A stretch of DNA of 64,000 nt. It comes from Candidatus Binatia bacterium. GTDB taxonomy: Bacteria; Desulfobacterota; Binatia; HRBIN30. Below are positions 60,035 through 64,000 of the stretch, in pieces. Position 1 is the stretch's first letter, and every line of letters begins with the position of its first letter. The notes under the pieces are model-generated. The model did no database searches, had not been told where the DNA came from, and saw only the letters and a list, made by a program, of their open reading frames with translations. The DNA lies in NCBI GenBank assembly GCA_023150935.1, contig JAKLJW010000008.1, positions 1,721 through 65,720 on the forward strand. The letters run 5' to 3'. The position numbers were made by a program, and so were the translations under genes.

Positions 60035-60571
60035 ATGCGCGCGTGGGTTCGCAAAATTCTTCGCCGGCAGGTACCCGCAGAGAGCATCCCGGAGGTGCGG
60101 CAGGAGATAGCCACGACGCTCGAGGCCGCGCAGCGGTCGGCCCGCGCGGTTGCCCGGCTGGGGCTACGTTTGGACCAGGTGGAGTCGAAGCTCGAGGGCG
60201 GCTTCGCCGATCTGCGGGCCCAGCTAAGTACGTTTCGCAGCAATGGCGTGCCGGCGTCTCGCCCGCCCTTCGAGCTGCTCTTCGACGCTGCCGACCTCCT
60301 CGACGAAGCCGCACGGCTGAGTGCTTCGCCCGGTCACGCGGCGGGGCTCGCCGGCATTCGCGAGCGACTGGAGCGGTTTCTTTTCGAAGCCGGCCTGCAA
60401 CGAGTGGCGCAAGTGGACGGTCCGGTGGATCCGCTGCGCTTTCGCGTCGTGGGCCGCGAGGACGGCGGCGCGAGGCCGCGCGTGATACGTGCGGCAATCC
60501 TCGACGGCGAGCGGCTGGTTCGCGAGGGCGAGATCGTTCTGGAACGCGAGAGGGAGGAAGCCACAACATGA
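60035..60571 (+). CDS. GrpE-like nucleotide-exchange factor (divergent)
   Basis: Coiled-coil N-terminus. C-terminus GLQRVAQVDGPVDPLRF…RAAILDGERLVREGEIVL aligns to the GrpE beta-domain (G.EVI……P.DP…GYTLNGRTIRAAMVTV). Stop overlaps the Hsp70 ATG. Confidence 0.5.
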   Translation: MRAWVRKILRRQVPAESIPEVRQEIATTLEAAQRSARAVARLGLRLDQVESKLEGGFADLRAQLSTFRSNGVPASRPPFELLFDAADLLDEAARLSASPGHAAGLAGIRERLERFLFEAGLQRVAQVDGPVDPLRFRVVGREDGGARPRVIRAAILDGERLVREGEIVLEREREEATT

Positions 60572-62253
60572 GTGCCTTCGGTATAGATCTCGGAACGACC
60601 AATTCCTCCATCTCGCGCATCGTCGACGGCCGCCCGGTAGCGTTGTCCGTGGACGGCTATCCGCTGCTGCCTTCGGTGGTGCTGTACCGCGACGGCGGCG
60701 TGACGGTCGGGCGCGAGGCTCGCAATCTCGAGCTGCAATGGCCCGAACACACCCTGCGCTCTGTCAAGCGCAAGATGGGGACCGGACACCGCTGGACGGT
60801 GGCCGGACGCGAGGTCGGTCCCGAGGAAGCTTCCGCCGAGATCCTCGCGGCACTGAAGCGCGGCGCCGAGGCGGCCACCGGGGAAACCGTTCGCGATGTT
60901 GTCATTACCGTGCCCGCCTACTTCGATGACGCCCAGCGGCGTGCGACCCTCAAGGCGGGCGAGCTGGCGGGTTTGAACGTCCTGCGCCTCTTGAACGAGC
61001 CGACCGGCGCATCGCTGGTCTACGATCAGGTTCGGCAGACCACGGCCCAGCCGGAGATCGTCATGGTCTACGATCTCGGCGGCGGCACCTTCGATGTGTC
61101 GGTGCTGGAGGTCTTCGAGGGGGTGCGCGAGGTCCGCGCCACGGCCGGCAACACTCACCTGGGCGGTGACGACTTCGACACGGCACTGGTCCGTTTTTTT
61201 GCCGATCGTCTCAAAGCCGAGGCGCACGTAGATCCACTCGGCGACGCGCATGCTCGCGTACGGCTTGCGCGCGTGGCCGAGGCCACGAAGATCCGCCTGT
61301 CGGCCGAAACGGAGGTCGACGTTGCCGAGGAGTTCCTGCTTGCCGACGACAAGGGCAAGCCGGTCCACCTGCGCCTGCAGGTCACGCGCCGTCAGCTCGA
61401 AGAAGCCATCGCGCCGCTGTTGGGGTCCACGATCGATCTGTGCCGGCAGGCGCTTGCCGAGGCGCGGCTCACGGGCGGACAGCAGCTCGCGCGGATTCTG
61501 CTGGTGGGCGGTTCCACACGTCTTCCCATGGTGCGCCGGTTGCTCCGCGAGGCCTTTCCCGATGCGCCCGTACACGAGGAGGTCGATCCCGACCTCGCCG
61601 TAGCGCTTGGCGCGTCGGTCCAGGCCGGGTTGCTGCGCGGAATCGCCCTCGAGCGGATACTCGTCGATGTCACGGCGCATTCGCTCGGCATGTGCGTTCT
61701 GAGCGAAGCCGACGATTTCAGGGAGAAGCCCGACACGTACGCCCCCATCCTGCACCGCAACACCGTGCTTCCCGCAGTGCGCGCCGAGGAGTTCTACACC
61801 CTTTTCGACGATCAGCCCGGGGTGACGGTCGACGTTTACCAGGGCGAGGCGCCCCGGGCCTCGCAGAACAACCACATCGGGTCGTTCCGCTTCCCGCTGC
61901 AGCCGGCGCCCGCGGGCTGCCCGGTGCGGGTAGAGTTCGCATACGATCTCAATGGAGTCGTGCGCGTGAGCATTGCCCAGTCCGGTACGGACAACGCCAA
62001 GACTGTGGCTTTGTCCGTTGCCGACACCGGCGTTCCCGTCAGCTCGGTCGACGCGCTCGAACGCCGGGTGGGCGCCCTGCTCGATCGCATTGCGGGCGAG
62101 GACAAGCCGGCGCTCGAAGCGGCGCTGGCAGCATGGCGCGTGGCACAGGGCGAGAGGCGTCAGGCTGCCGAGGACGCGTTGATCGATCTCTTGCTGTTCC
62201 TCGAAGACGAGGCCGAGGCCGACGGTATCGATGAGGAGGGCGATGGCGTCTGA
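60568..62253 (+). CDS. Hsp70-family ATPase (DnaK-like, short C-terminus)
   Basis: AGGGAGGAAG RBS. GIDLGTTNS, DLGGGTFDVS, and GGSTRLPMV motifs. About 560 aa, lacking the full DnaK lid. Confidence 0.8.
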   Translation: MSAFGIDLGTTNSSISRIVDGRPVALSVDGYPLLPSVVLYRDGGVTVGREARNLELQWPEHTLRSVKRKMGTGHRWTVAGREVGPEEASAEILAALKRGAEAATGETVRDVVITVPAYFDDAQRRATLKAGELAGLNVLRLLNEPTGASLVYDQVRQTTAQPEIVMVYDLGGGTFDVSVLEVFEGVREVRATAGNTHLGGDDFDTALVRFFADRLKAEAHVDPLGDAHARVRLARVAEATKIRLSAETEVDVAEEFLLADDKGKPVHLRLQVTRRQLEEAIAPLLGSTIDLCRQALAEARLTGGQQLARILLVGGSTRLPMVRRLLREAFPDAPVHEEVDPDLAVALGASVQAGLLRGIALERILVDVTAHSLGMCVLSEADDFREKPDTYAPILHRNTVLPAVRAEEFYTLFDDQPGVTVDVYQGEAPRASQNNHIGSFRFPLQPAPAGCPVRVEFAYDLNGVVRVSIAQSGTDNAKTVALSVADTGVPVSSVDALERRVGALLDRIAGEDKPALEAALAAWRVAQGERRQAAEDALIDLLLFLEDEAEADGIDEEGDGV

Positions 62254-64000
62254 TGGGTCGGCATGAGGAAAAACGGCGCAAGCGTGCCGGCGAGGCACTG
62301 ACGCGCGCCTTGCGGCGGGGGGAGGCAGAACCGGCGCTGGCAGCGCTGCTCGATCTGCCTCCGGACGAGCGGTCTGCGCACTCGCGAGCGGTGGGAGATC
62401 TCGTGACGGCGGCGGTAGCGGCCGACTTCCGGGCGCACCGCTGGGACCGGCTCGGATTCTGGGCGGCTCGAATCGAGCGCTGCGGGGGGTGGCTCGACGA
62501 CGAGAGTGGCGAACTGCGCTGGGCATTTTTCTGGGGCAGCGCGCGCACCGGCGCATGGGCTCGGGCGACAGCGCTCGTCGACGGCCTCGCCGGTCGGTTG
62601 CCGGCGGCCCTTGTCGATGCCCTCCGGGGATATGTCGCCGCCGCCGGCACTCCGGCTCCCGAGGGCCTCGATCGATGGGTTCCTCCGGCACTTACGGTGG
62701 CTGAGGCCGCGGACCCGCGCCTGGGGTACGACCGTGGGCAGGTGCCGGTAGCGCCCGCAGGCGAGCCCGAGGCTCCCGTCACGCCCGACGAGGTCGAGGA
62801 GAGAGTGCTGGCGGCGTGGGCTAGCCTCGGCTGGAACCGTTTCACGACCATGACCGGCAGTTGGGCGGCGAGGACACCGGCTCTCGCCCGTCCGATACGG
62901 CTGCTGGCTGCGCAATTGTCGGTTCGTACGCTGCTGGTGCGGGCGCGGGCCGCCGATGCAGGCTGGGAACAGGCGGCGCGGTTCATTGCCGCCGCGTGCG
63001 AGGATCTGAATCGCCCTGAAGAGCTGCGCGAAGCGATGGCATTGGCGGTGCGGGTTTCCCTGCGCGGCGGCAACGGTACGGTCGGTGGGGCGCTGACCGC
63101 CTGCCGGATGGCTAAAGCGGCGCTGGGTTATTCCGATCTTGCCAGCCTGGCGGTAACGGCATTCTGCGACCTGCCGAAAGTGGACCTGCACCGAGAGAAC
63201 GTTGTGACCCCGGACGAGGAGCGCCTCGCGCGCGAGATGCTCGCTCTGGGGCAGCGGTTACTCGAAAGGCATCCGGACCCTCACCTGTTCTGGCACGCCA
63301 TGCGCGTATGGGAGGGAGCGGGCGACGAGCCGAAGGTTCCGGGATGGTTGGGAAATGCCGTATCGACGCTGCTCGCGGACGGGGCGGACCTCGGCGGAGG
63401 ATTGCTGCAGATGGCGCCGGAAGATTGGCCGCGGTGCCTTTTTATCGCTGTGCACGCCCTGCCGCCGCCGATCGTGGAGCAGGTGCTGGAGTGCACGTGG
63501 GAGGCGGGGGGTCCGGCCCTCCGGCCCCACCTGGCGCAAGCGGCCGGATGCCTGATCGAGCGCCTGCGGCCAAAGACGCTCGGCAAAGAGCGGCTCGCCG
63601 AGGAGGCGCGGATCCTGCGCGAGAAGACAGGAATCGCGCTCTCGTTGGACGAGGTGCGGGCCATGTTCGAAAGCGCCGGAGGCCCGCTCCTCGACCTGCT
63701 CGGGGAGCGGACGGAAGGGCCGTTATCCGGGAAGGCGCTGGCGTTCTGGAAGCGCTTCGGCGAGCGTATCCTGCCCTACGACATTCGGCACCTGGAGTAC
63801 GCACTGGAAGTCGGGCCGGATCGGGCCACCCAGGAGACAGCTCTCGACCGCTACCTGGAACGGCGAGCCGATGCGGAGGCGATGCTCGACGAGATCCGCG
63901 CGGCGGATGGCGACGCCTGTGTTCTCGCCGCGGCGGCGATCGAAAGACGACTTCTGGAGCGATACGAGCGCGATCCGGCGGCGCTGGCCGGGGCGTTCCT
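62253..64000 (+). CDS. Hypothetical large helical protein, translationally coupled to the Hsp70 gene (3' end outside window)
   Basis: ATG 62253 shares the A of the Hsp70 TGA (TGATG). The frame is open to the window end (>580 codons). No family recognised. Confidence 0.4.
   Translation, partial: MGRHEEKRRKRAGEALTRALRRGEAEPALAALLDLPPDERSAHSRAVGDLVTAAVAADFRAHRWDRLGFWAARIERCGGWLDDESGELRWAFFWGSARTGAWARATALVDGLAGRLPAALVDALRGYVAAAGTPAPEGLDRWVPPALTVAEAADPRLGYDRGQVPVAPAGEPEAPVTPDEVEERVLAAWASLGWNRFTTMTGSWAARTPALARPIRLLAAQLSVRTLLVRARAADAGWEQAARFIAAACEDLNRPEELREAMALAVRVSLRGGNGTVGGALTACRMAKAALGYSDLASLAVTAFCDLPKVDLHRENVVTPDEERLAREMLALGQRLLERHPDPHLFWHAMRVWEGAGDEPKVPGWLGNAVSTLLADGADLGGGLLQMAPEDWPRCLFIAVHALPPPIVEQVLECTWEAGGPALRPHLAQAAGCLIERLRPKTLGKERLAEEARILREKTGIALSLDEVRAMFESAGGPLLDLLGERTEGPLSGKALAFWKRFGERILPYDIRHLEYALEVGPDRATQETALDRYLERRADAEAMLDEIRAADGDACVLAAAAIERRLLERYERDPAALAGAF

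Follow-up and report, generated by a model that had tools for sequence, protein, structure and literature searches.

A conserved, mainly myxobacterial four-gene operon encoding a probable specialised Hsp70 machine built around a DUF6109 protein

Results

Organization of the locus

The analyzed stretch of DNA (the window, 64,000 nucleotides) ends with three genes on the forward strand. Gene 1 (60035..60571, +) encodes a divergent GrpE-type nucleotide exchange factor (NEF) of 178 aa, gene 2 (60568..62253, +) an HscC-like specialised Hsp70 of 561 aa with a complete NBD, the linker RILVD, an SBD-beta and a shortened lid, and gene 3 (62253..64000, +) a DUF6109 protein with the first 582 of its 672 codons in the window. 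The frame of gene 3 is open at 64000. A public contig identical to this one supplied the sequence beyond the window; it completed gene 3 to 672 aa, with its end at window-equivalent 64271, and revealed just past the window end a fourth gene encoding a J-domain-like (J-like) protein of 125 aa.

The three open reading frames lie where a first-pass annotation, made from the letters of this DNA, had placed them, and both overlaps that it described are real (ATGA at 60568-60571 and TGATG at 62251-62255). Genes 3 and 4 are likewise coupled by an ATGA overlap. The strong ribosome-binding sites also claimed are present before the Hsp70 gene (GGGAGGA) and gene 3 (GAGGAGGG), whereas none lies upstream of gene 1; gene 4 is preceded by a Shine-Dalgarno-like run, AGGGAG. 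No internal promoter was predicted in the operon, its single terminator-like match scored below shuffled sequence, a search upstream of the cassette found no heat-shock control element and the window holds no second Hsp70.

Conservation and distribution of the cassette

The order GrpE-like, Hsp70, DUF6109, J-like was found again in 21 other loci, in searches started separately from the GrpE-like gene and from the J-like gene, in genomes or MAGs of Archangium, Hyalangium, Vitiosangium, Stigmatella, Anaeromyxobacter and Polyangia. No Myxococcus member was present among the homologue matches listed. Junctions in these loci are equally short (-4, +3, then -4 or +1), and since both order and junctions recur, the arrangement is more than chance: the four-gene operon is conserved and mainly myxobacterial. 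Between loci, the pairwise identities of the four proteins rise and fall closely together (Pearson 0.95-0.99), DUF6109 being the fastest-evolving member, and no cassette lacks the J-like gene. The surrounding genes are unrelated from one locus to the next, with no flanking family common to more than 3 of 15 loci. The DUF6109 gene was co-inherited with the Hsp70 gene in every informative locus while the flanks differed, which speaks against an independent downstream gene.

An autonomous cassette with variable neighbourhoods, a fast-evolving large subunit and a distribution centred on Myxococcota could also be an anti-phage or conflict system, in the manner of the Hsp70 and GrpE that accompany NTPase-centred immunity modules in multicellular bacteria; GAP1-N2 GTPase conflict systems contain Hsp70, GrpE and DnaJ-fused proteins (PMC7159879). 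We regard this as quite improbable, given that PADLOC returned no match above noise, that no GTPase, tubulin, STAND or effector domain occurs in or beside the cassette, that phage and plasmid collections yielded no matches, that the flanking genes are ordinary housekeeping genes and that the published examples come from Actinobacteria and Firmicutes.

The NCBI product name of MCK6554375.1, "DUF6109 family natural product biosynthesis protein", and the divergent neighbours in the window (a DegT aminotransferase, a large membrane protein, a GT2 glycosyltransferase and a radical SAM enzyme) would fit an accessory role in making natural products or cell-surface glycans. However, these neighbours lie upstream on the opposite strand and are conserved in no other genus, isc genes, gatB, HD-GYP proteins, FeoB or SMC flank the cassette elsewhere, and none of the linked genes encodes a core biosynthetic enzyme, so that such a role is very unlikely.

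An ATPase-competent Hsp70 of HscC type

The cassette Hsp70 matched PF00012 (2e-119) and fell below the NCBIfam equivalog cut-offs for DnaK and HscA, scoring 428 bits with the DnaK model against a cut-off of 648. The window protein is 36.5% identical to E. coli DnaK, 35.8% to HscA and 33.1% to HscC; for the true DnaKs of myxobacteria, identity to E. coli DnaK is 58-62% (PMC11019930). The failed cut-offs and the 36.5% identity to DnaK bear out the earlier proposal of a dedicated, non-canonical Hsp70 system distinct from the housekeeping chaperone.

The GrpE-then-Hsp70 order recalls grpS-sglK of M. xanthus, and the locus might then be a housekeeping grpE-dnaK pair, or the sglK/grpS or stk operon, with unrelated genes downstream of it. 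This is hardly credible: the DnaK score (428 bits against 648), the make-up of the operon and the co-inheritance of the downstream genes with Hsp70 all contradict it. SglK (MxDnaK2) is a PRK00290-type DnaK, 62% identical to E. coli DnaK, whose bicistronic operon has no J-protein close by (PMC11019930), and StkA, of 540 aa, is followed by proteins of 141 aa and 89 aa from other families (PMC4319316).

The first-pass description of an Hsp70 lacking most of its lid was overstated. The SBD-beta is followed by 74 residues, against 131 in DnaK and 82 in HscC, the lid being about 57 residues shorter than in DnaK, and the gaps relative to DnaK (79-102, 208-211, 461, 471 and 536-556) are the same as those of HscC. 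The catalytic and allosteric residues D8, K70, E171, D194, T199, D201, R167, N170, T173, Q378 and D393 are kept in 17/17 cassette Hsp70s; the J-domain-facing residues R167, N170, T173, E206 and E217 are also retained. A loop of NBD subdomain IIB (LLADDKGKPVHLRL; 61336..61377, +), from the region called the "GrpE signature" in DnaK (about 285-295), is full-length in all cassette Hsp70s and deleted in E. coli HscA (289-298) and HscC (289-294); the weight that we give to this loop comes from PMC8215388.

Loop L1,2 of the SBD-beta carries an acidic insertion, SEADDFREKPD (61702..61734, +), which measures 9-10 residues in 16 of the 17 cassette Hsp70s and 7 in the other; the segment bearing it, equivalent to DnaK 400-412, has a net charge of -1 to -5 across the 17. 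The L1,2 insertion that defines HscC is of 4-8 residues, at the matching position (PMC8215388). Alignment of the 17 proteins also delineated a C-terminal motif, AE(D/E)AL(L/I)D(F/L)(F/L)L (62167..62211, +), followed by an acidic end (net charge of the last 40 residues -4 to -12). The best reading of these sequence features is that of an ATPase-competent, non-housekeeping relative of HscC type.

A divergent GrpE-like protein

Taken alone, the GrpE-like protein of the window gave no match in Pfam, NCBIfam or PDB. Its identification as GrpE-like, put forward in the first-pass annotation, thus does not hold for the single protein but does hold for the family: 61 homologues were found, 29 of the 33 aligned matched PF01025 GrpE (best E 2.6e-11), and the family profile matched the solved GrpE chains 4ani_A (1.9e-5) and 3a6m_A (2.5e-5) in alignments spanning almost the entire length. 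Conserved motifs comprise MxW(L/V)xR(L/I)(F/L)xR at the N-terminus and FRVVG...VxRAA...LVREGE in the C-terminal beta-domain. The NCBI model of gene 1 (MCK6554373.1, 158 aa) leaves out the conserved N-terminal motif. Because gene 1 is GrpE at the family level and the Hsp70 keeps the IIB loop, a role as the private NEF of the cassette Hsp70 is plausible. Counter to a DnaK-type dependence on GrpE, the salt bridge of the lower cleft is not conserved, with N in place of R56 and R or Q in place of E264.

An HPD-less J-domain-like protein

The J-domain search suggested at first pass gave a match, in gene 4, just outside the window. PF00226 was matched by 16/16 members of the J-like family tested, and the family profile matches more than 25 solved J-domains. 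The model (pLDDT 90.3) contains helices I-IV, its top Foldseek matches were all J-domains, and hhalign aligned the protein with E. coli DjlC (probability 94.8%, E 5e-8). Family members are of 121-167 aa and end in a single long C-terminal helix. The HPD triad is absent from all 69 members examined; the HPD/HPE position reads P-P-H/Q in 69/69, with an invariant Pro aligned with that of HPD. Since HPD is normally essential for ATPase stimulation, the J-like protein may serve for regulation or anchoring instead of activation.

In its full form, this alternative makes the J-like protein an HPD-less regulator or structural subunit, comparable to Pam16 in its relation to Pam18, with the Hsp70 either cycling alone or relying on a canonical J-protein from another locus. 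Large surveys agree with it in treating HPD as the defining feature of J-domains, the sole notable variant being HPE (~1%, including DjlB and DjlC) (PMC10410713). We nevertheless consider it doubtful, although the strongest of the alternatives. The substituted loop, HPPHxDPxGF, is almost invariant, which points to a contact surface under selection; in helix II the basic pair K26/R27, residues of the kind that contact the Hsp70 NBD, is nearly invariant, and the J-domain-facing residues are retained on the Hsp70 side. The closest relative, DjlC, stimulates HscC according to work cited in PMC8215388, and the gene is never missing from the cassette.

The DUF6109 protein

The third protein, annotated at first pass as of unknown family, belongs to Pfam DUF6109. 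It was confidently modelled as an all-alpha solenoid of TPR-like type, and its C-terminal tail is basic and disordered. A short linear motif, DPRLGYD (residues 154-160; 62712..62732, +), falls in a predicted disordered loop (residues 147-163, pLDDT <50), and among 56 DUF6109 members the RLGY[DE] core is conserved at R in 47, L in 47, G in 51 and D/E in 49. The tail is lysine-rich (10% K vs 2% in the body); the window protein ends in ...RGRKAQLDLFEAG.... The pattern Q[LIMV]x[LFIM] occurs within the last 60 residues of 41/94 members vs 4% in controls, and the strict Q[LM][SDEGNAT][LF][FLP] in 17/94 tails vs 0.2% of shuffled tails. Relatives carry QLSLFES, QLSLPLE, QLELPL or QLGLPLF, and nine members terminate in ...[LIF]P[FL], for example QDDIPF. 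Such a QLxLF-like motif is found in about 40-60% of family members only and is absent from all Archangium, Hyalangium and Vitiosangium proteins examined, so it is not a universal recognition site.

These tails resemble the clamp-binding consensus QLxLF, which is usually C-terminal (PMC4549789). DUF6109 could accordingly be a genome-maintenance factor loaded or removed by the Hsp70 set, its lysine-rich tail binding DNA and its QL[DE]LF / QLxLPL or ...D[DE]IPF end binding the beta clamp or SSB partners; both the enrichment of the strict pattern and the nine ...[LIF]P[FL] termini are in line with this, and smc-scpA-scpB lies directly downstream of the cassette in one lineage. We rate this as unlikely, in view of the restriction of the SMC adjacency to that lineage, the many members lacking the tail motif and the lack of a DNA-binding fold in DUF6109. 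Moreover, the near-identical QLMLT of clathrin is an optimal ligand of the Hsp70 substrate groove (PMC2830701), and the adjacent Hsp70 therefore explains the tail motif equally well. A genome-maintenance role would concern the physiology of the cassette and is compatible with our main reading, that of an Hsp70 machine with DUF6109 as its partner.

Peptide binding by HscC occurs mainly through positive charge (PMC8215388), and with its basic tail DUF6109 looks like an Hsp70 partner. Its predicted solenoid, fast evolution, disordered-loop motif and basic tail also give it the look of a partner and not of an enzyme, and it is probably what the cassette chaperone acts on.

Discussion

The gene content, homologies, fold predictions, conserved motifs and co-inheritance reported above lead us to favour, as the likely explanation, a self-contained, specialised Hsp70 machine encoded by one translationally coupled four-gene operon and acting on or through DUF6109. 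What binds what, and whether the HPD-less J-domain stimulates the ATPase, are inferred from these; neither the sequence nor the neighbourhoods of the loci pointed to the cellular process served. The GrpE-like protein would be the private NEF of the Hsp70, gene 4 a DjlC-type J-domain protein serving as its private co-chaperone or targeting factor, and DUF6109 a dedicated partner, either a remodelled client or a platform bringing the chaperone to a target. In the proposed cycle, the C-terminal helix of the J-like protein would dock onto DUF6109 and the J-like protein would hand a disordered DUF6109 segment to the substrate-binding domain of the Hsp70, which is acidic. Candidate segments are the loop bearing RLGY[DE] and the basic tail, with the QLxLF-like motif near its end. 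The segment would be clamped upon ATP hydrolysis and the Hsp70 reset by a GrpE-like dimer. By analogy, this cycle resembles that of HscA/HscB on IscU, or of Hsc70/auxilin on the QLMLT tail of clathrin.

Like DnaK-DnaJ-GrpE, the cassette comprises an Hsp70, a J-domain protein and a GrpE-type NEF, and its Hsp70 keeps the catalytic residues, interdomain linker and IIB loop of DnaK. It differs in the low identity (36.5%), sub-equivalog scores and shorter lid (by ~57 residues) of its Hsp70, in a J-protein devoid of HPD, Zn-finger or client-binding domains, and in that no heat-shock control element was found upstream. HscA-HscB-IscU likewise pairs a specialised Hsp70 with a small dedicated J-protein encoded beside a single client, IscU being recognised via the short motif LPPVK. 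In contrast, HscA has an N-terminal extension, lacks the GrpE signature and needs no NEF (PMC8215388), the HPD of HscB is canonical, and the cassette has no linked isc genes except a coincidental neighbour in one Hyalangium locus.

The likeness to Hsc70-auxilin-clathrin is a functional analogy only: an alpha-solenoid whose C-terminal tail is disordered and has at its end a QLxL-type motif, to which a dedicated J-protein recruits Hsp70, QLMLT being the Hsc70 groove ligand required for clathrin uncoating (PMC2830701). There is no homology with clathrin, DUF6109 is not known to polymerise and only about 40-60% of its members have the motif. In the same phylum, grpS-sglK and stkABC of M. xanthus are small operons in which a non-heat-shock Hsp70 has private partners, and both regulate exopolysaccharide and motility; their Hsp70 subfamilies and partner proteins are others (PMC11019930, PMC4319316).

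The closest parallel is HscC with DjlC and DjlB. Cassette Hsp70s (555-577 aa) and HscCs (550-580 aa) are similar in length and share identical gaps in the DnaK alignment, the L1,2 insertion of the SBD-beta and an acidic and aliphatic C-terminus, while the J-like protein shares with DjlC the ...TDPxGF...R.AYE core and a sub-threshold Pfam score (18.5 against 19.3 bits). However, identity between HscC and the cassette Hsp70 is only 33%. HscC lacks the GrpE-signature loop and is regarded as NEF-independent (PMC8215388), whereas the cassette keeps the loop and begins with a GrpE-like gene; in DjlC the triad is HPE and the C-terminal domain spans ~430 aa, where the J-like protein has PPH and a single long helix; and the E. 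coli HscC locus has no DUF6109 counterpart, the DUF6109 profile showing no similarity to DjlC.

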